Origin: Paraspadella gotoi
Lineage: Eukaryota; Animalia; Chaetognatha
NCBI GenBank assembly: GCA_051294375.1
Contig: CM119269.1
Location: 4,497,098-4,561,097, forward strand
Direction of reading: 5' to 3'
Length of the DNA: 64,000 nt
Below, piece after piece: positions 7,634 through 37,629 of the stretch. A program made the translations under genes and the position numbers. Every line of letters begins with the position of its first letter. Within the stretch, counting starts at the first letter, position 1. Below the pieces are notes generated by a model. It was not told where the DNA came from and did no database searches. It saw nothing but the letters and a program-made list of their open reading frames with translations.

Positions 7634-9065
7634 CTGAAACAGAAACATAGATGCTGCTCTTTGCGCCCCGTAGAGGCAGCTCAGCGTTGCCGACATGCCC
7701 AATGGTGACATCTGTGGCACTAACTTAACGACAGGAATCAGCGCTGCAAAAAGCGCCGAAGCCACTGCGCCGACGATGGAGGCGTCGCGATTGCCGATCT
7801 TGGCATTCGTCCAGGGACAGACCAAGAGAGCGACGGGGATGACGGCGAGGCAAGGCACACTTGCGACAAAGCCGAGAGCAAAAGATGACAGACCGGCGCC
7901 ACCATGCGACGCCATTAACCCGCCCCACATCGTCAACGCCTCCTTGGTACTTTTGGCCGTCAATTTAAAAGTGACCATAGCGAAGACGATGACAACGAGC
8001 GGGAAAGATATTTTTGAAACTTTATTGGCCTCTTGTTTGTTGGGATCAATTGGTAGCAGGGTTTCTCCATATCCTTCTAAAATTTCGTTAGTGAGTTTTA
8101 AAGGGTAAGGGTCTATTACGTCTCGTTGGTTTGCTTCAATCTTACTTCCTTTGTCTTTAGCGCTCTCCTTTGGTAGCGTCCTTGTCTTGTCTTTTTCTTC
8201 GTCTTCAATGCTTGTTATGAGAGGTTGTACTTCGTTAACGTCGCGCCCTACAATGGATGTCGTTTCAAGGAAAGCTTGGAGAAAGACACAAGCACATATG
8301 CAGAGGAAGACAGTTGGGGTAGCACATAAGAGGAAAGGAAGATTGACAGGTGGATGCCTCAATAGTGGAACATCTGTGAAAGAGAAAGTGGAATTGGGCC
8401 TGAAATTTGGTTTAGTATTAATAGCACTATCAGCGTCATCTTGGTACCATCATCATCTCGTCCAATAATCAAAGTACATTGTACACGTAAAAGTCCATAC
8501 GTCCTGGAAACTGACCAATGAGGCTCGCGGCTGTCAACGGTCCCAGTACAAAGCCCAGCTGAATGGCGATAATCAAAAGGCCCATGTTGAGGTCCCGACT
8601 CTTAGTGTCAGAGAGATCGGCGACGGTAGCAAAGAGGACTCCGCGGGCGTCAACGGCGCCCATTGCTAGACGCCACACCACAGCAGCCTTGAAAGAACCG
8701 GCGGCGCCAAAGCCAATGTTGGTCACCGCCATTAAAAAAAGCGAAGCTATAAGGATTGGACGACGACCCCAGCGATCAGAGAGGTGACCCCAGAGGATGT
8801 TGAGCAAGGCGCCAAGGTAGTACACGCCTGGTAAGCAAAGGGATTATTGAAAATTTGAATAATTTAGAATAAAATACGTGAACAACTTGATGAAAAACTG
8901 ACCTATCATAAGACCACTGCTATATCCAATATTTCTCTCTTTTGTTCCAAAATGGCGGACGACGTCAGGGGCATAGCCAAAGATAGAAGAGTAGCTGACA
9001 CTCAAGGCGATCATGGCGACACAAACAGCCAAAAGGCTCGTCCAGTGGTGCTTTGAATTAATCAT
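7634..9065 (-). CDS. MFS transporter (ZIFL/tetracycline-transporter-like), exons 1-3 (N-terminal part)
   Basis: MFS motif A WGHLSDRWGRRPIL and multiple TM helices. It ends at an unpaired donor (…AASMFLFQ|gtgaaag at 7634/7633); the matching last exon is at 14037-13744. Confidence 0.85.
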
Positions 9066-10836
9066 TCTTGATGCATTACTATAAAAATAAGAATATTTTC
9101 TTCGCCTGATTTGCTTAGATAAATTATCTCAGAACATTTAATTAAGATAAATAATGCAAAGAAATCGATTTCCTTCCGTCCGTCTCTCTGTCTGTTTGTC
9201 CCTCCGTGCGTCCCCTGTAAGATTTGAACGCCAATTACTCATGAGTAGATCATAAGATTGATTTGAAATTTTGTGTGTGGGTTGTAAAGTGGGTGATTTA
9301 GCTAGAAATCAAGTTAAAATTAGGCATGAGAAAATGAGTTTAAATTGAAACAAGTTTGAGCAAACTATGCCGGATCTGCCCACGATTATTAGCGGTAAGC
9401 AGCTGATCAGATAATTAACTAATTAATTAAATTAATATTAATTTTTTTATTCGTGTCGCCTCTTAATCTTAATAATTAATAACTTATTTATTAATAATTA
9501 ATTAATGCATCTTGAATTTACATTTAACATAAAAAAGCATAATCAAATAGTGAAATAGATTGTTTGTTTTTTCCATTTTAACTCATTTCCACTTGGACGA
9601 TTCCATCAAAACTTTATTTCCTGCTCAATCACGAGTAATTGGTGTTTTTTGTTAAGGTGGGACGGACGAACAGACAGACAGAAACAGACAGACGGATGGA
9701 CGGACATAATTTATTTGCATAATTTATCATAATTTGATGTTCTGACAAGATTGGGGGGGCGGACCGACGGACCGACAAAGTGAATTATACTTTATAGAGC
9801 CGGAATCTGCTGTAAGCATATCCGGCTAAAAACAAAAGTCACGTTCCACCGTTTAATTTTATTTTTTTAAATAAAATGTAAATGTACACTGAAGCAACAA
9901 TTATAAGTATATAACAAGTAATGACCGCTACAGAAAATAAAAAGAAAAAAGAAAACAAATAAATAAAGAAAACAAGAAATGACTTTTAAGTGAAATGACA
10001 AAAAAAAACCAAAAAGATAGCATTAGAACTCAACAACTCACTAATGTGAATGAGAAGAATGTTTTTTCTTGACAAAATGTAGAGTCGTACCGTAGTTAAA
10101 ACGGCCAAAGTCGATAGTATCAAACAGAATTAGTCGGCGGACATGAAACCGGTTTTCTACTCCTGCGCGCGAATTAGTAGAAATTTATTTTTACTAAAGG
10201 AACCTGATTAACCTGTTATATTTTTACCTTACTTCATTTAGCATGGTGTTACAGCCTGATCCGAAGCTCAAGGACTGCTTATAATGAACGGTTCTGTCAT
10301 TAACACTTATCAATAATTACTGTCTCTTCAGATTTAAATTTAAATTTAGATTTAAATGAATCAAATTTTTTCACATTTAACTTTGCAGTGGAGTACTTCA
10401 ATTTAAAAAAATCACTGCTCCCACAGCCTGGTTTTTATTAAATTTATGCCCAACTTTTCATCTTTTAATAAATTTTAACTTTTTCATAATTTTAGAATTT
10501 TAGAAAATCTAGGTATAAAGGACTTTTAAACTTTTAAAACTTTTTTTTGTTTTTTGCACGTGACTGTAACGCTCAAGCATGTCATTTACATATGGCCAGT
10601 TTTATATGGTTGATTTTTTTTAAAGCTTTATTCTTTACATAGACTTTCCTTATTACTGTTTCTGAGTAGGTATGTATATTGTATATGTATAACCTTGTCC
10701 TCCCCCGTTCAATTTATAAAACGTTTCATTGTTTTTCAGTCCGAATAAGACAAGACTAGTTTATCAGCGTAAGAAAATAATTTTTGAAAATCATATTTTC
10801 CTCTAATTTTTTTGTTACGTGTATGACCATTGACCA

Positions 10837-10918
10837 TTTAGTGAGAAAAAGAATTTCTTTAACAACAACGATTTTTTATTAATAGTTGTTGTTCAAGAAA
10901 TTCTTTTTCTCACTAAAT
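10837..10918. repeat. About 80 bp hairpin/palindromic mini-element
   Basis: atttagtgagaaaaagaatttctt ... aagaaattctttttctcactaaat inverted arms. Confidence 0.8.
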
Positions 10919-11657
10919 CTTAAAAACACAACGAAAGAAAGAAATGATACAATGTCTACCATTGACCAATAATTTAAGTTCTTAAAGACTTCTTCTTCTA
11001 GACTCAATTTAAGAAAGTCAAACCCTAAATTTTGATACAAAAATATTTTTATTTAGCGAAATTATTAAGCTTAGCTCATGTATAGATTTTTACGCGAGAA
11101 TCATAAAACAAGAATTTAGAATTCGCCATTCAGAGTTTCTATCCGTTTATCTTTACGCTACTATTAAGTCTCTACTAAAAATTAATTGATTTCAGGTCAA
11201 ATGATATTGGTACAAACTATATAAATTATCCATTCGTTAAATAAATAAGCTCTCTGTCTCCTAAGTGAGGACAGGCAATAGTGGGTTACAGGAAAAAACA
11301 TAGCAAGTTCTTAATCCATTCTCTGCCATGATCCTCAATTTCCAGTTCATTTACTCCCTTGGCACCTGACTTCCTTATTATATTAATGAAGTGAAAAAAA
11401 TATTTTCATGAACTGTTTCATAAAATGTCAATTAATTTCAATGTGAATGTCTCTTCCTCTTTTTATTTTAGGATTAACATAATGTACTACTGTAATTCAT
11501 AATTTCTAATTCTGACTTTACATTGTACATAAAAAACGCAGTGAAGTAAGTGCTGCCACTTTTTTTTTTTTTTTGCGAAAAAAATTTATCGTTTAACGAC
11601 AAAAAGTTGAAAACAATCCTAACTACAATTAGTACAATTACCCGTTGCTCTTCTGCG

Positions 11658-12207
11658 TCATTCAATAGCGACATCCGCACACCCGTAGAATTGCTCTTGG
11701 GGTCCGTGACCCATTCCGCACCCTTGACTGTCGCAGCCCCAATTTGATGCGCAGTTCCAGCGCCACTGGATCACGCACTGATCGCAGGTGAGACCGTCCG
11801 GAAGTTTAACGTGGAGATCGTATTTTCCAGTGCGCAGACTCCCACGAGGCATAGTCCATCGAGTAGAACCCCCTGACGCGTGGAAAAGAAGAAGAGTGAT
11901 TGAGAGATGGATCGAAAAAAGATAGTCAAAATAACCATTCTATTTCACGCATTTGTTCATTACTAATCAAGTTGCGAAAATATTTATTAATGATAAAAAA
12001 TGAAAAATTTAATTTCTTCCTTTGCAATGTGTCATTTAGTTGAATATAAAAAGCTGCTTCTTTTAATATTCACCTTCCCCAATTTCCATGGCTTGAAAGC
12101 AAGATTCCTCGGCTCTTGTATGCTTGTCCTTCACTGGGCAGATGCTGTACTCGAACCATCCGCCGTGATTAGCTGTGATTTCCACTGTTATCTTAACCGT
12201 TGATCCC
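11658..12207 (-). CDS. AA15-type lytic polysaccharide monooxygenase (chitin-binding type-4 domain), C-terminal two exons only (12207-12074, 11872-11658)
   Basis: GSTVKITVEITANHGGWFEYSIC and LPDGLTCDQCVIQWRWNCASNWG...GHGPQEQFYGCADVAI motifs. The signal peptide and His1 exons were not found in the window. Confidence 0.85.
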
Positions 12208-12596
12208 CTGCATTAAGATTTTTAGGGTCAAAAGCGAGGCTAAAAAGCTACTAAAATAAGAAAAGATGCAAAACATATTTTGTTTTATTTCTTTTCTCAA
12301 ATTTTATTTGTAAATCGTCATCTTCGAACCCCAAAAAGTTATTTTTATTCTCATCAATGTGTTGTGCAGTGTAGGTAATAATAGTCTGGGAAGTATACAT
12401 TTTTTTGCTCAATAATGTAAAAACAAGTTTGAGCAAACCATGTCGGATCTGCCTACGAAAATGAATTAATTAATTAATTAATCATTAATTAATTAATTAA
12501 TTTTAATATTTAATAATTAATTAGGCCAAAGTGAAGTACAGATTAAAAAAGCTGAGCTCTTGGCATCCCATCTCTTTAATATCCGCCCCCCTATAC

Positions 12597-13040
12597 CCGT
12601 CTCCGTCTCTGTCCATGACTTGAAATGCTTCTCGAATCTCCTCGTCGGAGTCTCCCTCCTCCATCCTCTTGACCATCATGATGACGAACTCGTCAAAGTC
12701 GACTTCTCCGTTTCCGTCGATGTCCACCTCGGCCACCATCTGATCCCGAACCAAACCCAACCATTTTTTTATTAATTTCACTTTCTTATGCTTTGGTTAA
12801 CGGCTCGTGATGATTTTTCATGAGCCTTTAAGTTTGAGACTTTATCATTTAAATTTAAATCCCCTCACGTTCTAAACCAAAATCTACCTGAATGAGTTCG
12901 TCGTCAGTAGGGTTAAGCCCCAACGCCCTCATGACCGTGCCCAACTCCTTCGTCCCGATGGTGCCGTCGCCTTTTTTATCGAAGACATTGAATGCCTCCC
13001 GAAATTCAGCGATCTGCTCAGGACTCAGTTTGTCCGCCAT
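12597..13040 (-). CDS. Calmodulin-like EF-hand protein, exons 1-2 (13040-12888, 12739-12597)
   Basis: [45 protein letters not shown]...[16 protein letters not shown]...[16 protein letters not shown]. It ends at a phase-2 donor GG|gtatag. Confidence 0.9.
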
Positions 13041-13743
13041 CTGCCGTCACGGATGCAAGGAACGATGAGTGAGGAGACGCGGAAAGGATTTCGGGGTCGA
13101 ATTTTTCAAGCATTATCAGATTCGGAGGCATTAGATTCCTTTTAACAGGGCGTAGTTTCTCTCGATACATTGTCGACTCATATCATTTTACATAAGTGGT
13201 TGAATAAACAAAATGGGTCAATTCGGGTCGCCAGAAAAGCATTTTTATAATAACCTTTGCCGGTCGTTATTCACTTTATGGCGGAACGGTTGACGAGAGC
13301 GTCGTTAACTATCACCAAAACTTGGCAACGATGAATGAGCGTCAAAGGTTCAGACTGTTAAACGTCGTGGTTCAGTCTAACGTCCTTTTTTTACAAGCTA
13401 ATTTTTTAAAGATTCCCCGGAGAATCGACAAATGAAAAAAACGAAACAAAAGAACAGGTACGAAATGTCTAAATCTTTAACTATAATGCATACAGGTCGA
13501 AAGTCACAAACCCTAATCACTTTTCCCTAATTTCAATCGATTGGGAATTTGCCCTTTTCTAACATACTCTGTTTATGAAAAAAAAAAATCAAGTAAAATA
13601 TTTAAAGAAGTTTTTATGATGAAGAAAACAGTTCGCAACGGAAAATAAAATTTGTACAAAATGAGTTTCGGAGCGAGCAATACACTATTCTATAATATCT
13701 TCGGCCATGAATTTATCTGTTATGTGTTATGCCTAATAATTTT

Positions 13744-14037
13744 TTATTCCGACATTCGACTTAAGTTATCTCTTGTTGTGGCACCAATTCCGCCCCTCGG
13801 AACCAAAAGAAGCACCAGGCTGATGACAATATAAAGTGCGGACATCACCAGAAACGCCATCCCATAGTTCAAAAACGTCGGTTCCGATCCGATAACTTCG
13901 GAATCGTTGGCACTGACAATGGCGCCCGTCCCAATGGAGCTTCCCATATTGCACAGGCATCCCAGGCCCATGGCGACGCCGTTGACGATCCCTAGAAGAT
14001 GAGGCGGAGTGGTGCCGTTCATGAGGAGCAAGAGACT
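13744..14037 (-). CDS. MFS transporter last exon (out of order; belongs to the 9065-7634 gene)
   Basis: Acceptor cttcag|AGT, phase 0. SLLLLMNGTTPPHLLGIVNGVAMGLGCL...YGMAFLVMSALYIVISLVLLLVP corresponds to TM10-12 of this MFS type. Confidence 0.8.
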   Translation of the reverse strand, partial: SLLLLMNGTTPPHLLGIVNGVAMGLGCLCNMGSSIGTGAIVSANDSEVIGSEPTFLNYGMAFLVMSALYIVISLVLLLVPRGGIGATTRDNLSRMSE

Positions 14038-14140
14038 CTGAAGGGCCATAAGTCAAAAACATTATAGTGAAACAATTTGTACGTATTGATTAGAGAACAG
14101 CTTGTTAAGAAAAAGGGTCATTCAAATCAACTTGAAAATA

Positions 14141-14370
14141 ATCTCTTTAATATCCGCCCCCCTATACCCCATCCTATACCCCATCCCATCTCTTTAATAT
14201 CCGCCCCCTATTACCCCATCCTATACCCCATCCCATCTCTTTAATATCCGCCCCCCTATACCCCATCCTATACCCCATCCCATCTCTTTAAATATCCGCC
14301 CCCCCTATACCCCATCCTATACCCCATCCCATCTCTTTAATATCCGCCCCTCTATACCCCTCTATACCCA
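14141..14370 (+). repeat. 47-bp minisatellite, about 5 copies (atctctttaatatccgcccccctataccccatcctataccccatccc)
   Basis: Direct tandem copies without spacers. One 35-bp copy lies at 12564-12598 and degenerate copies at about 17420-17770. Confidence 0.92.
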
Positions 14371-14387
14371 CCCCCTTTTTTTTTAAG

Positions 14388-14887
14388 GCTTTCACGGGGA
14401 AAAGTGCGACTCGGTCTGCCCGTCGGGATCATTCGGCTACGGATGCTTGCATCGCTGCTCTGCATGTCCAACGGGTCAGACTTGCTCGCCCGTCACGGGA
14501 GCATGCTTGAGTCCGAAAAGAGACGACGACGACGACCATAATGACGACGAGGTAAAGGAGGAGGATCCACCCAGAGCTGCCTCTTCCTCCATATCCTACT
14601 CTTTCTATTTCGACTGGCGATTCGTGCTCGGCCTTTGTTTACTCTGCCTCCTGTTCGTCGTCGTCGTCGCCCTTCTCGTCGTCTCCTACACGCGAAGACT
14701 TAGGAAGTTCGAACAGGAACTCGTCGTCCACTTTGTCCGCGAGTCGTCTCTGGCGGCGGCGGCAACGTCGCCGTCGACGTCGTCCTCTGCGTCGTCGGCG
14801 GCGGCGGGAGGAATGATTAACTCGGCAATCGTCTCCGGGGGAACTGGGTGAGAATAAGAAGGAACGACGAGAAAAAACAAAGAAATT

Positions 14888-14947
<60 letters not shown>

Positions 14948-14970
14948 AAAAGAAAACAGTTTGAAAGAAT

Positions 14971-15010
<40 letters not shown>

Positions 15011-15061
15011 AAAAAAAATAAAGCAGTTTGAAAGAGAAAGAAAGAAAGAAAGAAAGAAAAA

Positions 15062-15093
<32 letters not shown>

Positions 15094-15140
15094 AAAAAAA
15101 AGAGAGCTGTGAGAAATAAGAATAAGAATATGAAAATCAT

Positions 15141-15205
<65 letters not shown>

Positions 15206-15952
15206 AATTAATAGATAAACAATAAAAAAAGAAAGTAGTAAGAAAGCATGAGAACAATAAAAAAAAGAAAAAATTAACAAAGGAAAAGTGAATACCTAAC
15301 CGATTTAATTAGTATAATTAATTAATTAATTTGTATACAGAAAGTGGGAAACGCCTAATTACTTTCTCCTTTTCTCTTTAATCTTTTGTCAACATTGATT
15401 CCTAGAACTGCTAATCCACTTCACGCCGACGCCGCATCGACGCTTTGCTACAACACGATGCGCCCCAACACCAGTCACCCCCTGGTCGCTTCCGCTTCTG
15501 CCGCGGGGGCGTCGGGCGTGGGTCGAGGCGCCGAGGAGGGTCCTTCCACCTTGTCCAAAACTTCCTTTTCCGCCGTTGCTCTCAGGTAATAAGTGAAGGA
15601 CGATCATTTTTTAATTATGATAATCATTATGTTGCCGAACAAACGTGATTGATTGAATGACTGGCTAATTGAACATTGCTGCTAAACCATTTCGGATTTC
15701 CGTTTCAGTGAAAAACGTCAAGTTGCTCTCCCGTATCGCCCCGACGGTTCCGTTGCTTCGCTTCAACCGCTCCCACCGGATCAACCTCCATCGTATGAAG
15801 AGTGCATCGGCGCCGCTGCCGCTACGCCTCCCGTCCCCGATACGCGGGCGGGTCTGCCGGAAGTGACGACGCTTCCGCCGAGTTTGTCCGCCATTTCCGA
15901 AATGTCCGCCTTCTCTTCGGAAGACGACTCGGAGACTCGTCATTTGGTTTAA
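14388..15952 (+). CDS. MEGF10/Draper/CED-1-like receptor, C-terminal part (14388-14847, 15406-15585, 15709-15952): last EGF repeats, TM helix, cytoplasmic tail
   Basis: GFHGEKCDSVCPSGSFGYGC, TM FVLGLCLLCLLFVVVVALLVVSY followed by TRRLRK, and a tail with NPLH and PPSY. Stop at 15950-15952. Confidence 0.85.
14880..15230 (+). repeat. (GAAA)n microsatellite in a MEGF10-like intron
   Basis: Visible tetranucleotide array. Confidence 0.95.
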
Positions 15953-16879
15953 AATCTCACATTTCCCTTTTTTTTTTACTCGATCGCTCGTCCCCAGGGC
16001 TACCATTACCATTACCATTTCCTTTCGGGCGCAAATCTAAGTCTTAACAAAATTTTAATCTTCTTGTCCTACTACTTTTTTAAAATAATGTTTTTACAAT
16101 TTAATGCCAACCATGACAAAGTTCCTTCATCATGACATTCATTGACAAAGGCGATACTTTTCCCTGATTGAAAATTTAATCTCGAAATTTTTTGTTTATT
16201 TTGTATTTTGTATTTATTCCACTTTTTAAAAATCAACGTTCAACGATCGAGAATTTTCTCTCTATTTTTCCTGCCTATTATCTTTTTTCTTTTTCTTTTT
16301 TTTTCTTTTTTGTTTCTTTGTTTTGTTTCTTCCATCTTCGAAAATATTTGTTTTACATACGTCTCGTAAATTAAGTGAAAACAATATTCTAATGCTTGTT
16401 TTCAATTTTGTTTTTGGAATTAATTTTTTAAATATTTCTGTAATGTTTTTTGAAATGTCGGTTGTTAACATAAATGAATTTACGATATCTAAGTTTTAAC
16501 TGAAGATACCCATCGTCAGTGACGTTTTGAAGCATGTCGCGACGTCTTGCTATTTGGTTATTGTTTCTCCGCTCAAATATATCGCGTCTACTACTTTTAA
16601 GAATATTATTATTATTATTACTTGAAAAACAAATTTAAACCAAAGGTATTATTATTAATATGATTGTTTATATCATTATTATTTTGAGCCCTTTTGTGTT
16701 TAGATCCCGTTCATTTTTTATCGGTTCAATTTATCCTCCGTTACATATCCCCTTCTTATTTTTTTTGGGGGGGATATCACTACAGACAGTAATTATATTG
16801 GTGTACCAGCTTTATTTTATATCAGTAATGAAATAAACATATCATTTTATACTGAATGGTTTCAACTTTATTCAGTCGC

Positions 16880-17162
16880 TTACTTCATATCGAACATGGC
16901 CACGAATTCCTCGTACGAAACCTAAATAAAAGAGCTATATAAAAACTGATCAGATTTAATAATTAGTTATTATGTAAGTGACCAAACGACCGACCACAGA
17001 ACTAAAGGCATAATCGTGACAATTTCTACTAAATTACGCGGCACCCTCACCATTCCGTCCAAATCCGCATCGACTTCCTTGATCATATCCGTGATCTCTT
17101 CGTCGGTGACTTTCTCTCCCAAGTTGGTCAGGAGATCTCTCAGATCCGCCTCCGAGATGAAT
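16880..17162 (-). CDS. Calmodulin-like protein, exons 3-4 (17162-17051, 16921-16880; out of order)
   Basis: Acceptor ggcag|A TTC ATC TCG gives FISEADLRDLLTNLGEKVTDEEITDMIKEVDADLDGM + VSYEEFVAMFDMK*. Confidence 0.9.
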
Positions 17163-17908
17163 CTGCCAATGTCAGCGTAGAAGGTTTCCATTTTTGTCGT
17201 GTATTTCTCCTTTTTTTTCCCTTTCTTTCTTTCATCTTTGTAGAATTTGTCTCTTAATTTTTTCTCTCCTCTTTTTTTCTCCCCTATTTGCATCTCCACG
17301 CACCTATTCTCTTTGCCTCCATCCGTTAGCTTTCTGGCCCTAACGCTCAAACCTCGTCACTCTTCACTGAAGAGTCTTCAGTCTTCACTGTAGTTTGCAG
17401 TCGACTACTACACTCTTCCCAATTCCCATCCCTAATTTTCTGCACCTATCCGTCTCTTTAATTTCCGTCCCTACCAATCTTGATTTTTGGGCCTTAGTTA
17501 CCCGGAAGAACGCCAAATTGTTTATTAAATTTGGAATTAGGTTAATTTTTTAAATTAAAAATTGGTTAAATGTTTGGGCTAAGGATTAGGTTAAAGATTA
17601 GTTTAATGATTAAGGTTAAGGACTTGGTTTGTGATTACCCGTCTCCTTAATTTCTGCCCATACCCGTCTCGAATTTTGTACCCCTACCCTTCTTAATTTC
17701 CTCCCCATCCACCACATCTCCTCTCTAAATTCCTTCGCCCGCTCAACCTTATTTTCTCCCCTCAAACTCCCCCCCCCCTGGAACAGTAACGTTACGCCAT
17801 TTTTCATTGTGTCATAAATTGTTGACGGAAAAGATAGTTTTTAATATTGAAATAAGTTCAAGAACCGCTGTACGTAACTTAACAAAATCGAAACTATTTC
17901 GAATGCAG

Positions 17909-20900: not shown

Positions 20901-21144
20901 TTCTTAGGCACCTACGGCTACGGATGCAAGCACGAATGCCCCGACTGGTGCCGCCCGGGCTCTATCCCTGCCATTCCCTGCGACCCGGTTGACGGGCGAT
21001 GCGTTTGCCCCGTCGGCCGAATCGGGGCCGACTGTCAAGAGCCCTGTCCTTTGGGCCTGTTCGGCCAGGATTGTCGGCGAGTTTGCGATTGCATCCATGC
21101 CGACGGCTGCTCCTTCGCGACCGGAAAATGCATCTGCACTCCCG
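17909..21144 (+). CDS. MEGF10/Draper-like receptor, middle part (about 11 exons of EGF-like repeats)
   Basis: Repeated CxCxNGxxCDxxxGxCxCxxGxxGxxC units across GT-AG exons. There is no start or stop, and the first acceptor and last donor are unpaired locally. Confidence 0.88.
19270..19585. mobile_element. MITE with about 35-bp terminal inverted repeats in a MEGF10-like intron
   Basis: ataaaatgaggtcgtggttttttgtgaccagaa versus ttctggtcacaaaaaagcacgacctcattttat. Confidence 0.8.
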
Positions 21145-21354
21145 GTCAGTTTTTGGGAAAAAGGCCCCTGGCCTCCTCCCGTCCGCCCCCTTTCGATAAT
21201 TCGCGACTCTGCTCATTTTTATTACTCTGTTTACACTTGACCTTCTCTCGAACCTTTTTTTTTTTTCCTCTTCTCCTAAATTTTGTCCCTTTAAAATTGT
21301 TTCTGAGCCAAATTAATTGATCATTACTTTTGGTAATATGTGCGATATACACTA

Positions 21355-23018: not shown

Positions 23019-23539
23019 TTATCTGTACCCTTTCTGCAACCTGCATTCCAAATTTTCTTTTTTTCCCTTTCAAATGTATTAAATAAAAAAAATTATTTGA
23101 GAGAACAATCGGCGTGGAGGATGCCATTAGTAAGCCTTAGTTACCCCACTTCCCGATCGAATTTTTAAATGAGGTTTTTTTTCCATCTATTTGAGACATA
23201 ACACTAACTATTAGTACTATTTTTTTATATTTTTTTCTATTACAATTCTATGAATAAATATGAATAAGTAACTTTTTAAAAAAATTTATCATCTTTCACC
23301 CTATATACAGTCATATCTTAAAAACAAAAAAAGATTTTGCATTGATATTTTGGATATCAACATATGAAACTAAACGTTTCAAAAAATAAAAAGAAATATA
23401 ATAATATTAAACATTGAATTTTTTTTATGCACTGGATAATTTTTATATTGGTTGTACCAATTTCATAATGTCGAACTTTGATTCGTTCTTATCGTTTCTC
23501 ACCCTAGCCAACAAAAAAAATTAGAATACAGTCAAAGAC

Positions 23540-24246: not shown

Positions 24247-24652
24247 GACTTTTCGAACGGGTTCGGGAATGAACCGCCTCGTCGCGGCCTCATATCAAGG
24301 TTCCCCCGACGCTGGCGCAGAAAATGCAGTTTCGAGTAGTGTAGTCAGATCGGGGGTTGGCGAGAACAAACGTCTTCTCGATTAATTAAATCACTTCGGG
24401 ACATCAAGAGGCGACTAAAAAAAATTTAAACTCTTCACGAACATGTAATTGTAAATAAAAAACTACAGCGATTGCAACGATAAAAATATTATAAAAGAAA
24501 AAATAAAGACCGAAAAGGTAGAAATAGAAAGCTACTAATATATTGAAACAGAAATCACAAAAACCGTGCAATAAATATTAAATTACACCCTATAAAAACC
24601 AAGGTGAGCCAAATAGTACACAAAAGAAACAAAAAAAACCAAAAAAACGACT

Positions 24653-26315: not shown

Positions 26316-26416
26316 TTTCTTAGTCTGTCTGCGATGAAAATTCAACGAAGGCACAGGGAAATTTCGTTTGACTTTTCTCTGCACCGCAACGAAGACAACA
26401 AGATTGGCCATTTTTT

Positions 26417-28209
26417 TTAAATCTCCGGTTTTTTCAATTTACTAATGTACATTGGTCCAAAATTAGCCTTGAGACTCGGAATCACTTGAATGCCGTACTG
26501 ACAACCGCCGTAGAAGCTAAAGTTTCGGGCGAATAGTTTGATGAATGAGTTCAGATCCACCACCACTGGCTTGGGCTGATGCGGGTGGAACAGCTCGAAT
26601 TTTTCAAAAAATCGCCTGATGACGCCGTCGTTCTGTATTGGAGATATTTTGACAAAATAATATCTCAGAGATAATCTCTGAAACTAGCAAGATGCTCTTC
26701 TCAAAATCCCTCACCTGCGACGGCGACAAAGTGCAGGTGGAGTAAACGACCTCGCCCCCTGGTTGACAAAGCTCGTAGGCTCGATTCAGCAACAACGCCT
26801 GATACTCGGGGAGTCCTTCCCGCTCACGCCTTTTCCCCGGTGAGAAAACATTGTTTTCGTCGTCAGTGACAGAGAGGCGATCGTTGGAACAAGGTACATC
26901 CACGAGGATCTTATTGAATGACTTCGGCGGTCGCCACGCGAGAGCGTCTCGAGTGAAAAACTGGATGACGTTGTCCGGGGAGGAGAGGAGAACGAGGGGC
27001 TTCGGAATGTAGGAGAACATGACCTAGGGTTGGAAGAGGAAAGAGATTTCAAAGCCGGGAAAAAAAATCTTCCAACCTCAATTAACCAACCTCCTTAAAG
27101 CGTTCCATTCTACTAAAACTCTTGTCGATGGCGACGATGCTCTGAGCGCGTTTTGCAAAGAGGAGAGCAAGAGTCTTTCCGCCCGGGGCGGCACAAAGGT
27201 CGGCCACCGAATCGTCGTCCTTGAGGTCGAGAGCGACGACAGGGAGAATAGAGGCCGCGTCGAAAAGATAATACCCCAGGCGGTCGAACTTAACAGTCAC
27301 GTCAGAATTTTTAATTTATAAATTTTTTTTGACTTTTTTGGACGTCAGAGAGTTTCCACTCACTTGATGGTAAGGAGTGGGGTAAGTCTCCACGCTTCCT
27401 TTGATAGTGAGACCCAGGCTAAGCGATTCGGGAATGTCCTCGACGGCGAACCGCTTCTCCGGGACCCGCTCTTCCACGACCGGGTGGGGATCCCTCATCG
27501 CGCTCCGAAGCTTTTCTTCTTCCCGCTCTTCTTCTTCCTCGTGGATATCGAAGGCGACGGCCCGATGGTAAAGCTTTTTAGGAGGAAGGAAAAAATCGAG
27601 GGAAGCGTCGGCGCTCTGATCAAGGCGAGAATCAAGCGCCTCTTGGAATTGGTAAAGCTCATCGTCGGCATCAAAGAAGTCGTCCTCGGTGGAGACTGGA
27701 GGAACTGTTGGAAGAAGACACTAGAGATGACGACAGGAATGGCAGTCAAACAGAGATTTCGGTTCTCTTAACTATTTCCTACAACGTTAAATAATAACCA
27801 ATTAATCATAAACTATTAGTCTATTACCCAATCTCTCCACGATTTCCGGAGTCTCCCCGTTCTTCCACGCCTTGAGCCTCTCACGCGCTTCGTCCAAAGC
27901 GTCGAACGCGCCGACGTCGAGCATGACCGCGTGACATTGAGTCGTATCCAAATAAGGGTTTACGAGTAGTCCATATTTGGGTCGCGATAGCAGCGCGCAC
28001 CTTATCAAAGGCCACTTTTTTTCGCCGTAAAGGCGCGGGTAATGGGCGTCCATGTATTCGAGAGCCAAGTGAGACGCGCCGGTCGGTTTATACTGAGAGG
28101 CCCACTTCTTTTTCACGCGGCTAGAGCCGTCGCGACGCGGGATCCTGCTAACAGTAGCCGCCGTGAGTAAAAAGGGTATGGAACGCCCCTTAGTAGTGCA
28201 CAGTGCCAT
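26417..28209 (-). CDS. NSUN4: Mitochondrial rRNA m5C methyltransferase NSUN4
   Basis: YYLFDAASILPVVAL, DLCAAPGGKT, ILVDVPCSNDR, VVYSTCTLSPSQNDGVI, ANFGPMYISKL. Confidence 0.9.
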
Positions 28210-29081
28210 TGTTTTGGTTTTTAAATATTGTATTTTTCCGCTTTAATCCAGCTTACACTGTAAGAAAAGATATTCTTCCATAAAAACGACAATAAACATG
28301 AATGTATAAAATATATTAAGCATTTCCTAATACAAATTATGGAATGGAACAAAATGTGCAAGAGCATAAAAACGTGGGCAAAATAAAGTTGAGCGGAGAA
28401 TTCACATAAATAACCTTACGGAAGCGACAATTATAACAAAGCCGTAATCAGCACCGAACGGGAAAGCGAAAACAGAAATATTAAATGAAATATATAATTC
28501 GTAAAGCCGTTAATAAATAATGAAATATAAGGAAGAAAGACAATTGTAAAAGAACGTTTTTTTCCAAAATCAATTTTTATTACTTTTTTACAATGCATAA
28601 CCTCGTTTCTTATTTGTCACTATGACTGGAGAAAAAAAGCGTCGCCTTTACAATAACATCTTAAAAACCAGTAAGTTAAAAAAAAAAGAATCCTGGATGT
28701 TTGGAATATTAAGTACAGGCTCTTCCGAGGTAGAAGACTGTCAACAGCCATAAATAACGTTACCAATTCAACGGTTTTATAATATAGTACGTATGCAAAA
28801 ATAAAAAAAAGAACCACAAAAAATCCCTTAAATTCCAGAAAACGGAATCCCAAAATATCGACGAATCGTAACAAAACTTCCGGCAAAAACTACAACCCAT
28901 CCGCGCGAATACAAAGCAAGATAAAGTATCGAACGCAAACTTATAGAAATTAAACTGAATATGTTCTGAGTAAATAGAAAGGAATTTAAATTTAACAAGA
29001 GATTTGCATTTGCACACAGAGATTCTTATTTCAGATCGAGAAACCGTCACCGGTTAAAACTTAGATAGATGCGAATTTCCC

Positions 29082-32000
29082 TCAATCCTTCGACAACAAA
29101 CGATCCCGACTTCCAGTTCTCTTTTTAGACGGGGTTCCTGGTTTCGGAGAATTTGACGACGCCGTCATCATGACTAGTCCGGCGCCAATCATGTCGTCTG
29201 GGTGGGCGCCATTATGCGAAGGGACGCCGTTATTACCCGCCCGTTTGCGGTTCCGCTTGAGCTTGCTCATATCGTCGCCGAACACCTCGCCGGTTCGAAG
29301 GGCGGAGATTAGGTCGTCGAACTCCCCCGGTTTCTTTCCCGTATCTTCCGGCGCTAAAATTGGGACGATCAGAGCTTTGAACGAAGGGACACTTCGAACG
29401 GACAAACAAAAACTGAATTCGTGACTCACTTTGATCATCGCCCCGGGTTCCCCGTTTCGATTTGGATCGATTCGCCCGTTCTTTCTCGCGAATTTCCATT
29501 TCCTTTATTTACACAAAGAATTCGCACACGTTAAAAGTTAAGACATTTTTATTTTCAAATTTCCCTACATCCACTTTTTTACCTTCATTCTCTTCTCGTC
29601 GTCCGCCTTTTTACGGCGCGAAGTCTCGTTTTCAACTCGGGCCTCCGTAAAGGAAACGATAAAATTGTCGAAGACAGAAAAAAATTCGTCGGGCTGCATC
29701 TTCGCCGAATCCTCTCCAAAGAGCTTGGTCACGGCGGCGTACTGTTGATGATAATAACCAGCTTTATTCAAACATACAAATATGAGGTGACCAATGACCA
29801 ACCTCCTTTTTCATATCTTTGACGGCGTCTTCGAGGTCGGAAAACTTGCAACTTGCGACGGTGACGAACTCTGCGACCACGGAAATAAATTTGTCTCGCG
29901 GGTCATTAGCGCTCCCACCCTCGGCGCGCGAGCGGTGGAAGGCAAGTTCCTTCTCGACGTCCTTTAAGCCGTCTCGAAGGACTGTCACCTCATTCTCCAG
30001 TTCGGTCATGCTCTCCTGAAAACAGATTTCAACATATTTTTACATAAGACTTTCGCAGTAAGATAAATAACTTTGGTGCAAACAAACCTTCGAAGCCGCC
30101 TTTACGGCGTGAAGCTCCTCTGGGATTTTCAAAAGATGCGGAAAGAATTTTCCCAAAGTTTCCACGAGGTAGTGAAGCAGAGTTATGTTTTTATCTTGAG
30201 AAGACTTTGTATCTATTATCTGAAAAAACGTCTATAATTAATCCCACTCGTTTATTAAACCTTCAATATTACGTAGACAACTTTTGAACCTTGTTCAACG
30301 ACGCAATCTTGAACCCGTAAGCATTGCCCCTTTGTCCTTTATTCATGTAGTTCCCGAAAGCGAGAACAATCTCAAGAACCTCAGTGATGCTCGTGCTCTG
30401 AGCCAACTGGCGGCTGGCGTCGTGAATGCTTTGCACTTTAGGCTTGACGGCGTTGATGCGTTCGGTGAAACTCTTTTTATAGAAGAGCGCTTTGAGGCGC
30501 TTTTCGTAGTGGACGATGCGCGACATTTCGTAAAAAAATCTGAGAAGAGATCAACAAGAAATCCACTAATTAATACACCGATTATTGTGTGATTAATATT
30601 TTAATAAATAGATTACCTGTCCGCTCTAGCCATTTCGTCAAGTTTTTGACCGTGCTCCTCCAACAATGCCGTCTCCTCTTGAGATGGCACATACTTTAAC
30701 AACTGTTCAACCATGTCCTTCGGAATTTCATTGTTCTTGTCCATGCACAGGATGGCGTTCGCGATCTTAAGGATCGAATAAAAAAAAATTGGGGTGATCA
30801 ACCCAAAAATAACCCAAAAGGGAAACGCGAAACCAGAAAACATTTAATTAATATACAACATATATAAAAACCTCGGGATTGCTTAGCTTGAGCTTGGACA
30901 AGAGAATCGTGCAATTTTGCGCACGACGTCCGTCAATGACAGATAACTCCCGATGCTTCGACGACGGAAGTTTGAGGGAGGCTTGAAGAGAGACGCCATC
31001 TTCGGGAGAAACGGCGTCTTGACGTTGATAAGCCGAAAACATGCGGTCTGGGGGGAAACGAAAATTATAAAAGTAAAAAATGAAGAAAAAACTTGGATGA
31101 CTTACCGATCTCTCTTAAATCCAATCTTGAATACAGTTTTGTATCGTCGAGCTTTCTCCACACTGTTTCATCAACTTTGTTATCGGGCAACTTGGCCCAG
31201 TTAAAACTCTTCAGTGGATTTTGTGGTTGAGGAATATTTTTCTTTTTTCCCATAGGTCTAAAGTCCCCAGGGGGTTTAGGTCCCCCGGGCGGAGGTGGGG
31301 GACCCCCGGGGACTGGTGGAGGACCACCCGGAGGAGGCGGGGGGGGAGGAGGAGCCCCCATAGGTGGCGGAGGTGGAGGCGGCGGCGGTGGCGCTGAGGG
31401 AGCAGAGATTTTAGATGAAGATTGAGTTCCGGACAGTTTGACTTTGGCGTCGTCGGGAATGTTGCCCGATTTGAAAAGGATCTCGAGTCTTTCCCTCTCG
31501 CTCTTTTCAGTCTCGAGTTGTCCCTTGAGATGGTGGAAGTGTTGGGTTATCTCGTCGAGACTTCGCTGCGTCTCCGTGTGGACGTTTGTCTCTCGCTCCA
31601 ACTTGGACTTCATCTTGGAGACGGCGTCGACCATCTCCTCTTTCTCTTGCGTCCTCAACTCGCACTCCTTTTCCTTCTTTCCCAGTTGATGACTCACTTC
31701 GTCGTTTTGCTTTTGCAATTCTCTGATAAAAAAAACAGGATCAAATAAGACCATCTCCATTGAAACCAATGAGTAAAGACACTGTCGTACAAACCTGATC
31801 TTGGATTGAACCTCCTTGATTTCGTTCTCATTAACCAGCATTCTCACAATCTTGTTGACGTTAAGGTCGATGGGTTCGCAGTCCGGGTTGTGACCGTTTT
31901 TGCTCTGTAGGCTGACCTGCTGCACGATCCGATCCAGCAGCTGCCAGTGTTGGGTATTGGTCTTGTAATTAGGGCCGTGTAACGGGAGCAACAGCGAGTG

Positions 32001-33792
32001 TTCGAGGATGGAGAGGAAATGCGGGTAAGACTGGGTGTAGTTGAGTTTTTTCCGGAGGACGTCGAACATGGCGCTCGCGCTTTTCGAATCTATGTGATCG
32101 AGACCATAGCGCTGGGCCAGGTCCTTTTCGTCCTCTATCCGAACCTAAAAGTTTCGTGACATTAAAGCGTAAAAACTAACGAATCAAAATTCTTACAGGG
32201 AAGAGAACTAAAATTACCATCTCGAAAAAGTCAATGTGTCGGTCGAGAGTAACGTTTTCCATTTCCCTTAGTTTGTCAAGAATAGGTTGAATACCAAGCA
32301 TAAGGAACTCGTAGCGAAGGTGAATACGAAACTCCAAATGCTCCTCCCCCGGTCCGTAATTGAGGGCGGCGTTAAAAAAAGAAAGGATTGCCGTCTTTAA
32401 CGCCATGTCCTCCCTAGTTCCCAGGCTGTCGGCCATCTAAATTTAACGGGCATGAATTTACTCAAATCGATATTTTGCAAAAACCGCAGACCTTTTTGTA
32501 CCTGACTCCAGGTATTGCTTCGGGGAGGTGAAGTAATCGGAGAGGCAGAGCCGCTTTGACTTCCCCCGTAGCCGACGCTGCTGCTGATGCTGCCGGAAAT
32601 CCCGCCGGCGTTTGCACCAAGTCGAGGTTCCAGATCGCAGATTAACGTTTGAAAGCGCGTTCGTTCTCCTAGCACGGTGGGGAAGTAGAAAGTTTTGATA
32701 AAACAAATTTAAATAGAGTGTAAATGGAGAAAGCGACTTTACCGGCGTATTGCTGGTAGTGATACATGGCTTGAAGGACTTTCTTGTGGCCTCCTGGGAC
32801 GAGGCAAACGGCGCCCAGTATTTCGAGCACAGCGATCTTTGTTTTGACGATGGAAGTGTAAAGCGATTGAGCGATAATCTTTATCGAGTCGGGATGAGAC
32901 AAAACGTGGGACCGGCCGTGCGAATTGTTCATCAAGGCCTGGATGCAGCCAATGGCCGAGTAGTGGACGGGACCCGATCGCGTCTCCGCGTCCATCGAGG
33001 CAAGTAAATTTAGGATGCAGTCCAGTCCCTGACAAAATTTCATCGTATCTTAGGCAGGAAATTTAGAAAGGTTGACGAGTTTTTGATACTACATACTTCG
33101 TTCATTGAATACTAATGCGTATCAATAAAAAAAAACATCGTTTTTTAAAATATATTATTGGATATACCAATTTCATAGATAAAACGAAAGACACTCCTCA
33201 CTTGTAATTCGATAAATCTCGTGACGAAAGAGTTTGGCTGCGTTCGCAGCGCCGTTTTAAGACTCTCAACTAGCTGCTCCAAGGAGCATTCTCGCTGTTG
33301 ATTGTCGTCTTGAAGACGGTAGACCGAAGCCTTGACGACCGACGTTATCCTTTCGACGTAATAATCAGGCCACTTAGCCGAATTGGGGTCGGCTTCCTCC
33401 TGCAAGCGAAATAGTAGACAATTTTATACATCGTGACAGATTTGTTTCGACCTTGAAGATTTTATTTAAACCAACCTTTTTCCGACTACAGTATAGTTGC
33501 CACTTTTTCTCTAGCGGCATCTCAAACATTTGCTGTCGTTGTGCTGGTGGTAAATCTAATTCCTCAACAATCTCCGTGAATTTGGCGTCAATTTCTGACG
33601 TGTCAGATGGCATTGGTTGTTCGCTCGCCATTGCCTGCATAACAAGCGATTTTAATTTAATTCTAACTTTTACTAAAAGGAGCTTTTCATCGTTTTAATA
33701 TATACCTGCAAGACTCCAGCCGATCTAGAGTCGATAACGATTTCTGGGGGGCCATTTGGGGCCCCCGGTATACAGAAACATAGGCCCTTCAT
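29082..33792 (-). CDS. DAAM: DAAM-family formin (GBD/FH3, poly-Pro FH1, FH2, DAD)
   Basis: [35 protein letters not shown], poly-Pro FH1, [57 protein letters not shown]. Confidence 0.95.
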
Positions 33793-34926
33793 TCTTTCTG
33801 CAAATAGAAAAGATTCGATTTTTGTTTTCGTAGGACCACTTCTTCACGAACTTTAATAACTTACATATAATTCGGGTTTAAGTAATGTTTTTCCGATGGC
33901 TTTTCATCAGAAATTGCCAAATCATCTTCACAAACTGCTTTACAAATTAATACATTTAACGATTTTTTTTTCAGTAATTACATAGAAAGAAAAAGAGCAT
34001 AAACAAACTAAATCATAGAATAAGCAAGAATCACCAAAAATTTAAGCATAAGGAAAAAAGGTTTAAAACGCATATAACAGAAAAACAGAAAAACAAACTA
34101 AAACGTCAGAAGATGTTCGTCTTACTTCCAGTGACGTGCTGATATTCTCTTCCTCTTCTCCTTTCGTTAAACAAGGATTATCCTCTTCTTTTCTCAAATT
34201 CTTCTGTCAACTCGAAGCCGTAAACGAGACAAGGGCGGAGTACGGTTTATTCATTGGCTCTAATGCATTAAATTTATAAATATCAATTCACTTTGTATTA
34301 TAAAATTTTTCTTTTTAAATTTACAACCTCCAATGAAAAATTTTTTAAACAACTTTTTTAATCATTTCGTAAAAAGGTATAGAATAATGACTGTACTTTT
34401 TGTTTTCATCAAGAAGTGGAACAGAATGCACAAAATAGCATTTTTTTTTTCTGAAATAAAAAGGAGAAACAACAATATTATGCATTCGGTGAATTGGAAG
34501 TTAAGCGATTGTATGGTAATGGTCAACATTTAAAAATATAAATAGCATTTATTGTTTTATAAAATGTTCCAAGAACATTCAAATACTCAAAACGTAATTA
34601 AAAATTCTCTGCTCGCTTCCATCTGACATGAAAGCTCTTTGCTTTCATTTTCATTTTTGTATCTTGTATTTTGTTTCAATGTTGACTATTACTTGACATC
34701 TAATTCTTCAGAATTAGTAACATTGTTGTTTTCCTTTTTCCTTTCAGAAAAAAAAAACATTTATTTAAATAAAAAAATATTTTGTAGCATTTTGTTATTC
34801 AATTGAATATTTTAATAAAATTTTGAAAAAATTATATTCCTAATGGTCTCGTCACTCAGTTAATACCATTAATGATCTAAATTTAGGTTTGCATAATCTC
34901 CATCTCATTTGTTCAACTACCCAAGA

Positions 34927-36062
34927 ATGTCAAATGAAGGTTTAAATATGAAAAGAAAATCATCGGGCGACTCCAAGGAAGAGGACGAACCAGAAGCCAA
35001 AAGAATGGAGAAGTCCGAAGATTTGGTCCTTGAAGCTAAAGTAGAAAGTGACAGCGGAATCACAACTGGTGGAGACAACGATGACGCTGATCAGATTCAG
35101 CCCGGGAAGTATGTTTTCTGTTTGGTTAAAAGAATAAGAATAGAAATAAACCAAATTAAAATTCTTTAGTAGGATTCTCGTCTCCATTGCTTCCAAAAGC
35201 CCTGAAAAATCAAACAAAGACTTTACAACTAATAAACCTTGCATATTAGAAGAGGATGGACAAGAAGAGAACGATTCTGATTTCAAACTAGATGAAAATG
35301 AAATAAAATCAATGAAAGCAGAAACTGGTGGCCACGATGATGAAAAAAATATTTGCGAAAGTTCAATTAATATTTTAAATAAAACAACTTTAGAGGAACC
35401 GACCGAAACTCCGGATATAATTTTTGCCTGCGACATTTGCGACTTTAAAGTATGTATTTTTGTATTTCTTTTTGTCATCTTTTCGTTTATTAATAGGCTT
35501 CTTTTTAACTTTAAGTTGGTCATTGGAGTCACCAGCTCATGACCCACAGGATATTTTTAACGCAATCGTTTAAATTAAAAGATTATGTCACGCAAATTAC
35601 TCTTAAATTCTAATAATTTTTTTTCGTTCATTCCCTCTCCAGGACACAATCGATAAAGTACGTAACCACAAGGCGTCTCGTCACGGGTCAGGATTGTCTC
35701 GACAACGCATCGGACTTAAGGTGGCGGTGGATTCGGGTCCCGCGAAAAAAAGGAAGTTCGTCGGTATTGACGAATACTTCTCCGTTGAGGACACCAACCG
35801 GATGAAATGTCGACAGTGTTCAATGATCCTCCAGACTAAATCAGTGCCCGACCACATAGTCAGGTGTAGCGGTAACAAGTTCTTCTGTGCGCTTTGTTGC
35901 AGCGGCTTTATCACTTCGGAACTGCTGCAACAGCATAAATTAGAGAACCATCACCAGTGTGAAATATGCGGGAGAGAATTTATCGACGCGGGAGACTTTC
36001 TTCAACGACATCAGGACAAATGCCGCAAGATGAAGGAACTGGCTTCGAAAATGGCACCCTAG
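34927..36062 (+). CDS. C2H2 zinc-finger protein, 3 exons, divergent from DAAM
   Basis: Acidic N-terminus, then CDICDF...H, CRQCS...HIVRC, CALCCSGF...HKLENH, CEICGREF...HQDKC. Confidence 0.75.
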
Positions 36063-36791
36063 GAGATCTAAAGATATCCTCAAATATATTTTTCACGTTG
36101 AGCAAGTTTTTCATACATGATTCGAGTAATCTATTGTGCGTTATATTCGTTCATTTATTCATGCTTAAATGCTTTCTAATTTAGTCATGTAGAAGCTTTC
36201 AAAAATGGATTCATAATCAATCAGTTTTTATAATTAATATTTAATATAGTATTATAAAATATAATCTATTATAAACTACTTGAATGAAAACTACGAAACA
36301 AATTTGTTAAATAAAAATTGTTTTATCAATAACATAGATGATAGATGCATTTACAAATATTTTATATTGCTACATTAAAATGTTCCATTTAGTTTTTATA
36401 TTCCTCTAGCTTTCATCGTTGTCCATTTTTCTAATTGATTTCCTTTTCTCGTTTTCAAAAGAAATGAAATTATTTTGACTTTTTAATACTCAAAACTTGG
36501 AAATCGCCTCAACTCAAGAAATACTCATCGGTTTACCAATAAAAATCTCATGATCTCATTCTTTGAAAAAAGTACATAACATGCGTAAATCTCAGCATTA
36601 ATCCCTTTACCAAAGCACATTCTTCATCGCTCCTTATCTTCTTTGAGATCTCTGGCTGAATTAGGAAGCGCGATAGATCCATAAAAAAGATTTCATCATG
36701 CGAGAGTAATTATTTGAAAAAAAATTTTTAAAAATTATACGAAAGTTCCCGTATTCGTTGCGGTCGCTTGGTTTTCTTGGAATATTTCACG

Positions 36792-37629
36792 ATGAAATTC
36801 GTGTATCTCTTGGCCTTCGTTCTGCTCTTCCCCGATTGTTTGGCAACCCTGTCGGCTCAGAGTCCCAACACCTGCAGTCGCGACGTTCTAGTCGAGGAAG
36901 AATTCACAGTTCCCTACCACAAGCCCCATCAAATCACGACGACGACCTTTTGCTTGGCCAAGTGGCCGCCCGTCTGCACCCAAAAGAGGACGATCTACAA
37001 ACTCAGCTATCGAACCCAAACGCGAACTCGACTCCGGACTGACGTTTACTGTTGTCCTGGATACGCGGAACACGAAGACAGGTTTTTTTAAACTCTCAAT
37101 TCAAATGTTTATCATACGAAATATAATCCCATATTCGTTGAATTAGGTGCATCCCAGCTTGCGCAGAATCATGCTTCCGGGGAGATTGCGTGGAGCCGAA
37201 CGTGTGCCAGTGCGAAGCGGGATATCGCGGTCGACTGTGCGATTCCCTGTGTCGACCTGGGACGTTTGGGAAAAGGTCCTCTACAATTTCTTTGTTTAAG
37301 GCTTGTTCATTTGTTTATTGTAAGCAATTCCGATCATGCTTTTATATCCTTCTGTCACTTCCCCCCTCCTTCCTCTTTTTTCTTATTACTTGCTCTTGCC
37401 ATCGACCCCACTAAACAAAAAAATTGGCATAGTTTTTTCTGCATTTTTGATTGCCAATGATCTAGACTCTAATGGGTGCGTTAATAATTTTAAGGTGCGA
37501 AAGAGAATGCAAATGCGCAAACGGTGCTAGTTGCGATCCGACTTCTGGGGAATGTCTTTGCTCTGAAGGGTGGAGGGGAGTCACCTGCGAAGACAGTTGT
37601 CCCGAAGGCACTTACGGACCGGACTGCAG
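36792..37629 (+). CDS. MEGF10/Draper-like receptor, N-terminal part (36792-37081, 37147-37275, 37495-37629): signal peptide, EMI domain, first EGF repeats
   Basis: MKFVYLLAFVLL signal peptide, EMI domain (PNTC...FCLAKWPPVC...CCPGY), NIM/EGF repeat CIPACAESCFRGDCVEPNVCQC. It ends at unpaired phase-2 donor TGC AG|gtaaat. Confidence 0.88.

Follow-up and report, generated by a model that had tools for sequence, protein, structure and literature searches.

Same-strand sequence blocks in reverse order split five neighbouring genes, most likely through an assembly error

The whole stretch of DNA analysed here (the window, 64,000 bases) contains five sequence blocks, B1 to B5, together with a minisatellite (R), an AT-rich element (T) and a fragment of a dispersed repeat. 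In the assembled order, these features are:

7634 to 12563, no strand assigned: block B1, with MFS exons 1-3 at the left and the 3' exons of a lytic polysaccharide monooxygenase (LPMO) gene at the right; true left edge within 5740-7633
12421 to 12523, plus strand: dispersed-repeat fragment, which stops in its own AT-rich middle when aligned to the full copy at 9120-9789
12564 to 14140, no strand assigned: block B2, whose first 33 bases match the R unit exactly and which carries the first two calmodulin-like exons and the last MFS exon
14141 to 14369, plus strand: minisatellite R, 4.9 copies of a 47-base unit
14370 to 17780, no strand assigned: block B3, with the MEGF10-like gene from exon 15 onward (plus strand), calmodulin-like exons 3-4 (minus strand) and degenerate R-like units at the right end; the right edge is approximate, the break lying somewhere in 17163-17908
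17909 to 21144, plus strand: core of block B4, with MEGF10-like exons 4-14 in colinear order and introns 74-386 bases long
21330 to 23050, no strand assigned: AT-rich element T, GC 0.24-0.33, with weak inverted ends (weak terminal alignment)
23540 to 37629, no strand assigned: block B5, with a DAAM formin gene, a presumed alternative-oxidase-like gene, an RsmB/NSUN methyltransferase gene, a zinc-finger gene, MEGF10-like exons 1-3 and the syntaxin-6 5' exons

Five genes are cut by the block ends: the calmodulin-like, MEGF10-like, MFS, LPMO and syntaxin-6 genes. Their separated pieces, apart from those in B3 and B4 of the MEGF10-like gene, are:

7634 to 9065, minus strand: MFS exons 1-3, with a donor GT after 7634 and the acceptor at 14037
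11658 to 12207, minus strand: 3' half of LPMO, exons 12074-12207 and 11658-11872, residues 124-239 of P0121, Pfam LPMO_10
12597 to 13040, minus strand: calmodulin-like exons 1-2, covering residues 1-98 plus two bases of the Gly99 codon
13744 to 14037, minus strand: last MFS exon, placed by a stop-free joined frame and weak profile order
16880 to 17162, minus strand: calmodulin-like exons 3-4, residues 99-149
23540 to 24246, minus strand: syntaxin-6 5' exons, N-terminal domain, Pfam STX6_10_61_N, last donor GT after 23540
36792 to 37629, plus strand: MEGF10-like exons 1-3, with an N-terminal hydrophobic stretch, an EMI domain and the first EGF repeats; donor GT after 37629

When the blocks were read in the reverse order B5-B4-B3-B2-B1 with strands unchanged, four exon joins restored three of these genes; at all four, the splice sites were canonical, the phase matched and the motif continued. 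The first-pass annotation had proposed that reverse reading repairs four split-gene junctions; all of them are present where it placed them, with fitting splice sites and phase. The calmodulin-like exons on the minus strand (12888-13040, 12597-12739, 17051-17162 and 16880-16921) encode 149 amino acids, and each boundary has AG/GT. Calmodulin residues 52-98 align to the exon that ends at 12597, and residues 100-135 to the one that starts at 17162; Gly99, inside EF-hand 3, is a split phase-2 codon at the join from 12597 to 17162. By its sequence this EF-hand gene would be classed as calmodulin-like, an assignment short of canonical calmodulin.

The MEGF10-like gene (plus strand) needs two joins, from 37629 to 17909 and from 21144 to 14388; its 15 exons then form a stop-free frame of 925 codons, obtained with exon 7 set to 18673-18777. 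The cysteine spacing is unbroken through both joins, and exons 1-3 matched Pfam EMI (E 2.9e-10) and EGF_laminin. The MFS exons on the minus strand (8903-9065, 8485-8827, 7634-8426 and 13744-14037) give 531 codons and no internal stop, the boundaries of the small intron 2 being one of nine pairs tried. MFS exon 2 matched Pfam MFS_1 (E 5.5e-17). In a profile of 59 distant homologues (32-46% identity), exon 3 covered positions 213-305 and the final exon positions 329-383, with weak scores of 3-6 bits that support this join weakly.

The block interiors were colinear where tested, namely for MEGF10-like exons 4-14 and for the DAAM gene, whose 11 tblastn pieces all lay in order. The other B5 genes were identified by Pfam, and the alternative-oxidase-like label is one that we took from the translation. 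Self-comparison of the window and the joined frames showed that each exon occurs once, and that none is repeated, missing or interrupted by a stop. The five-block order in the first-pass annotation stood; its placing of T between B5 and B4 is not demonstrated, since one break in 21145-23539 suffices. No join calls for T as a separate block; the element may belong to B4 or to B5, or may stand alone.

Five blocks allow 1,920 signed arrangements, of which strict reversal on unchanged strands is a single one; this makes random shuffling unlikely and indicates a systematic procedure. It bears on two further explanations. The order might be that of a rearranged duplicate or haplotype with intact copies elsewhere; no N stands at any junction, and the search covered the window only, so that such copies are conceivable. 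However, every exon retains an open frame and its splice sites and shows no decay, five genes are cut with each exon present once in the window, and random rejoining would give a strict same-strand reversal in only about one of 1,920 cases; this explanation is very unlikely. Chimeric molecules from library preparation, for example from whole-genome amplification of a small animal, would likewise account for junctions without N. Library chimeras are expected to invert or duplicate sequence, whereas the five blocks here keep their strand in a strictly reversed order with no exon lost, and we consider a library origin highly improbable.

The breakpoints had been described as lying in introns next to repeats. 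Their position in introns, beside repeats or low-complexity runs, was confirmed, but the base-level edges were not, as the breaks could be bracketed only to intervals of 350-2400 bases. The six brackets are 5740-7633, 12210-12596, 14038-14387, 17163-17908, 21145-23539 and 37630-39220. Moreover, intergenic breaks are invisible to the exon-join method, and the finding that all breaks lie in introns is therefore partly an ascertainment effect. Within these brackets, the block edges adjoin R and its remnants (12564, 14141-14369 and about 17630-17750), repeat fragments (12421-12523 and 6675) and element T, repetitive or low-complexity sequence of the kind in which contigs often end. Same-strand R-like sequence was found at 12564-12598 (left end of B2) and at about 17630-17750 (right end of B3), with one dispersed copy near 4800. 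The remnants sit at exactly the two ends that R should bridge, and R is likely a collapsed-repeat contig that should come after B3's right end and before the left end of B2.

The two outer ends of the segment also cut genes. The two LPMO 3' exons showed 67% and 83% identity to P0121 by tblastn, whereas residues 1-123 gave no tblastn match better than E 0.5 on either strand of the window. The syntaxin-6 5' exons matched residues 1-52 of syntaxin-6 from the PDB, and no SNARE domain for the other half was found in 71 flank ORFs by Pfam scans of selected ORFs (126 in one scan and 87 in another). That these partner halves were not found in the flanks argues against a local in-place inversion. The outer ends contradict the earlier suggestion that the pattern amounts to an in-place inversion of each block, and both a local in-place inversion and a local inversion of the whole segment were ruled out, LPMO residues 1-123 being in neither flank. 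The disorder probably runs on past the window. The rest of a dispersed repeat such as that at 12421-12523 starts at 6675, which hints weakly at a possible additional block after B1; several copies of this repeat family are partial.

If the order were that of the germline, with same-strand multi-gene blocks reversed, broken in introns and marked by repeats, the genes would have to be rebuilt by programmed DNA rearrangement or serial trans-splicing. We regard such a real order as highly doubtful, and no positive evidence for a biological alternative to an artefact was found. Between partner intervals, the longest exact direct and inverted matches were 10-15 bases, and in eight of eight tests they did not exceed the maximum of 40 shuffles. 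At the four partner pairs the longest direct matches reached 15, 11, 10 and 11 bases, each within the shuffle maximum; pointers of 2-10 bases may nevertheless be present. The earlier observation had likewise been that no short ciliate-type pointers were seen. For complementary arms between the half-introns, the longest exact inverted matches were 10-11 bases, at shuffle level in all four pairs.

In the first of these mechanisms, the germline order would be scrambled and somatic cells would restore it through programmed DNA rearrangement, as spirotrich ciliates do. The coding sequence is complete to the base, and the breaks all lie in introns; the calmodulin-like join has R-like sequence on both sides, which might be taken for a long pointer, and short pointers may be present, since the breakpoints were bracketed and not base-mapped. 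The cited part of the ciliate study describes long pointers in Euplotes woodruffi as arising from partial duplication (PMC9797194). The present segments resemble the scrambled germline genes of Oxytricha, Tetmemena and Euplotes woodruffi in that they are out of order and correct once reordered (PMC9797194). However, the hallmarks given in that part of the study, odd-even interleaving and local paralogy, are lacking: self-comparison of the window showed a strict reversal with no odd-even interleaving, no local partial duplication or paralogy and no exon repeated. The partner pairs also share no repeat above shuffled controls, and the blocks, unlike the ciliate segments described there, are multi-gene, 1.6-14 kb long and broken only in introns. 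The host, with a best DAAM match of 47%, is a bilaterian-type animal, and the 12 matches listed out of 116 in the gene-unscrambling literature deal with ciliates, with no animal case among them. Programmed rearrangement is considered extremely improbable. If true, it would represent programmed gene unscrambling in an animal with a geometry unlike the ciliate odd-even pattern, for which there was no report among the matches listed.

In the second, the order would be real and the halves would be transcribed separately and trans-spliced into mRNAs, or the real product would be a fusion made by exon shuffling. Animals do provide a precedent of split and rejoined genes in eri-6/7, as the cited portion of PMC4667647 describes. 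As in eri-6/7 of C. elegans and mod(mdg4) of Drosophila, exons of one protein lie here in non-colinear places; those are single loci, whereas here a single geometric rule governs the cuts in five neighbouring genes, with no exact complementary arms above shuffled controls at any of the four pairs. All five genes would require such joining, and the MEGF10-like mRNA would need two trans-splices over three pieces. In the assembled order, calmodulin-like exons 1-2 do splice in frame to the LPMO 3' exons (12597 to 12207), giving a fusion of 214 amino acids; yet an in-frame outcome is expected about one time in three by chance, and the fusion would leave calmodulin-like exons 3-4 intact but orphaned. 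Of all the explanations this one is the least probable, and it retains almost no credence.

The reversed block order is most likely not a real genomic feature but an assembly error. Judged from the sequence, a scaffolding or record-building step very probably reversed the order of the contigs but did not reverse-complement them, and the gaps disappeared. This cause, already put forward in the first-pass annotation, is favoured by the outer ends that cut genes, the R remnants and the absence of a pointer or pairing signal above shuffled controls. The blocks would be separate assembly contigs, each internally correct, with the block edges as contig ends; these would have been written out backwards in order and not reverse-complemented, and the gaps would then probably have been closed or dropped. 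Against a scaffolding error, scaffolds normally show N gaps, whereas there is no N in the 64,000 bases, as had been noted before, and the gaps would need to have been closed or removed. Regarding the procedure, about half of the weight is given to a mishandled minus-oriented scaffold, with components flipped without reordering or vice versa. About a third is given to read pairs taken in the wrong orientation, a geometry that keeps strand and swaps order, and a small share to Hi-C bins that were re-oriented but not reordered. Against the wrong-orientation variant, a pair would have to span B4 and B5, and a distance of about 18-20 kb is large for a mate-pair insert.

As an artefact, the pattern is a data-quality issue, and it would lead annotators to a spurious in-frame calmodulin-LPMO fusion. 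More of the record is probably affected, and hence claims of synteny, fusion or trans-splicing from the assembly need read support. Same-strand backward exon joins over several neighbouring blocks could serve as a signature for the triage of other windows. Exact 24-mers of the window had no match in metagenome contigs, and a protein scan of metagenomes revealed 57 loci, all generic calmodulin relatives, none of which shares a neighbour gene of the window.

A literature search, with supplements outside its reach, found no description of this exact reversed-order fault; related procedures have been described. Pairs in the wrong orientation can suggest an altered contig order, according to the cited part of the work of Sahlin, Chikhi and Arvestad (10.1101/025650). 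In the case treated there, where mate-pair libraries with PE contamination serve for scaffolding, gaps would normally be N, whereas no N is seen here and B5 is at least 14 kb, long for a mate-pair span. For Hi-C data, instaGRAAL is described in the cited section as having separate reorient and rearrange modules, with bins of one contig forced to their original orientation (PMC7386250). Hi-C bins of this kind end at restriction sites, whereas two break intervals here lack several such sites: 14038-14387 contains no GATC, GANTC or AAGCTT, and 17163-17908 contains no GATC or AAGCTT. GATC-cut bins were ruled out by these two intervals; AATT, AGCT, GTAC and TTAA are present in all six break intervals, which leaves room for other cutters. 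Going by the modules described there, the reorient step of instaGRAAL alone, acting on an inverted run, would, in our reading, yield same-strand blocks in reverse order, as in this window.

The window is gene-dense with short GT-AG introns and holds 0 N in its 64,000 bases; all analysis was based on its sequence and on homologues. A DAAM formin exon query retrieved animal proteins at no more than 47% identity over the full query, with Lingula best, followed by Liolophura and insects; the host is accordingly an invertebrate of bilaterian type, for which this query showed no close named relative. The first-pass annotation had claimed four exon joins between five blocks, numbered B1 to B5 as observed. 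These joins are real, and three genes are restored in the order B5-B4-B3-B2-B1:

12888-13040, 12597-12739 (B2) and 17051-17162, 16880-16921 (B3), minus strand: calmodulin-like gene exons, canonical splice sites
36792-37629 (B5), 17909-21144 (B4) and 14388-14847 (B3), plus strand: MEGF10-like gene, 15 exons, joined frame
9065 to 7634 (B1), final part 14037-13744 (B2), minus strand: MFS gene, joined frame

The calmodulin-like exons from B2 and B3 together encode 149 residues. Exon 2 aligns to calmodulin residues 52-98 and exon 3 to residues 100-135, and the codon split at the B2/B3 join encodes Gly99, within the loop of the third EF-hand. The MEGF10-like frame (925 codons, 0 stops) has Pfam EMI and EGF_laminin matches; its name is presumed from the layout of EMI, EGF repeats and a membrane span. 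The MFS frame has 531 codons and no internal stop, with one of nine boundary pairs tried for the small second intron giving this frame. A profile of 59 distant homologues placed the MFS pieces in the right order; since its scores were weak and the homologues distant, this join is the least secure of the four.

Taken together, the joins establish the order B5-B4-B3-B2-B1 and leave all strands as they are. Five blocks have 1,920 signed arrangements, of which strict reversal with all strands kept is one; if the order is right and strands are random, the same-strand chance is 1 in 32. The stretches tested for colinearity inside blocks, DAAM (11 of 11 pieces) and MEGF10-like exons 4-14, were in order, and self-comparison of the window revealed no repeated exons. 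A rearranged duplicate of the locus is very unlikely, as no part shows decay. A putative alternative-oxidase-like gene, so labelled by us from its translation, lies at about 24660-26410 (minus strand). The flank right of B5 (39200-55000) seems to be one long block; its EamA transporter, F-box gene, second MFS-type carrier and glycosyltransferase-like gene look colinear by eye. Further right, a gene with a MAM domain (Pfam; about 59460-61740, plus strand), presumably astacin-like from its HExxH motif, is nested in an intron of a Tudor-domain gene (Pfam TUDOR; 55100-64000, minus strand), which we take to resemble TDRD9/spindle-E.

Both outer ends of the reconstructed order also cut genes, which the first reading missed:

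11658-12207, right end of B1, minus strand: two 3'-terminal exons of a lytic polysaccharide monooxygenase (LPMO) gene, match to P0121
left end of B5, donor site after 23540: syntaxin-6 5' exons, family match

The two LPMO exons share 67% and 83% identity with P0121 residues 124-239, whereas for P0121 residues 1-123 neither strand of the window yielded a match below E 0.5. P0121 is a full-length LPMO relative, far closer (83% over the last exon) than any named protein. Scans for a SNARE domain found none in 71 ORFs of three break intervals and none among the 126 ORFs of a separate scan, an ORF scan being a weaker test than a full-protein search. As assembled, 11658-13040 (minus strand) yields a reading frame of 214 residues in which calmodulin-like exons 1-2 are spliced to the LPMO 3' exons. 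Roughly one such join in three would be expected to be in frame, and the fusion is most likely an annotation trap, a false gene model.

Had the event been local, whether by in-place inversion of every single block or by a prior inversion of the entire segment, the LPMO 5' half should lie in a flank. It is in neither, so the proposed equivalence to inverting every block in place fails, and the disorder most likely extends outside the window. Weakly pointing the same way, a dispersed repeat breaks off in its AT-rich middle at 12523, the remainder of such a repeat beginning at 6675. The copy at 9120-9789 has inverted arms flanking an AT-rich centre and resembles a non-autonomous transposon; partial copies occupy 6168-7254 and 12421-12523.

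The junctions are bracketed by exons only, in intervals of 350-2400 bases. Minisatellite R (14141-14369, plus strand) has 4.9 copies of a 47-base unit. Its unit recurs as 33 exact bases at the B2 left end and as degenerate same-strand units at the B3 right end; setting aside one dispersed copy near 4800, no other part of the window resembles R as well. A sixth piece, R, can accordingly be placed between B3 and B2, as had been proposed, and it has the appearance expected of a tandem repeat collapsed between two contigs. The companion placement of the AT-rich element T between B5 and B4 is not fixed by the joins, for which a single break at any point in 21145-23539 suffices. Extended (AGAA)n and (GA)n runs at 14870-15207 and 44107-44187 lie inside blocks, with no break detected there. 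GATC is absent from two break intervals.

Between partner intervals, whose ends meet in the reconstructed order, the longest exact direct matches measured 15, 11, 10 and 11 bases; for inverted matches the corresponding lengths were 11, 10, 11 and 10. None exceeded the maximum of 40 shuffles; the 15-base match, a T/A run, equalled it. Trans-splicing is known in animals from mod(mdg4). A further precedent is eri-6/7, as outlined in PMC4667647; however, trans-splicing would be needed here in five neighbouring genes, and the inverted matches provide no pairing arms above shuffle level; it is the least probable of the explanations.

The blocks are intact, strictly reversed and unchanged in strand, with repeat-rich edges and cut genes at both outer ends. 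We infer that they are contigs, all misplaced by one procedure, and their order is very probably an assembly artefact, in support of the scaffolding error first preferred. The simplest procedure would be a mishandled minus-oriented scaffold, its components either flipped without being reordered or put in reverse order without a flip; each slip gives the observed picture with contigs of any length. Read pairs in the wrong orientation and Hi-C bins re-oriented without reordering are the other candidate procedures. Against all three count the lack of N, the inferred status of the blocks as contigs, and a literature search that found no description of exactly this reversed-order fault. Library chimeras would account for the absence of N but leave the order unexplained, and are very improbable. 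Exact 24-base scanning of metagenome contigs gave 0 matches to the window. When calmodulin-like exon 1 served as query, 595 pattern matches yielded 57 loci; all were generic relatives, none sharing a neighbouring gene with the window.

The reversed order is most likely not biological, and gene unscrambling in an animal has very little probability. Programmed unscrambling would suit the intact exons and the one join flanked by R, but is highly improbable here. Long pointers have a precedent in Euplotes woodruffi, where they are described as arising from partial duplication (PMC9797194). The scrambled genes outlined in that source show an odd-even pattern and local paralogy, whereas the blocks of the window lack both.
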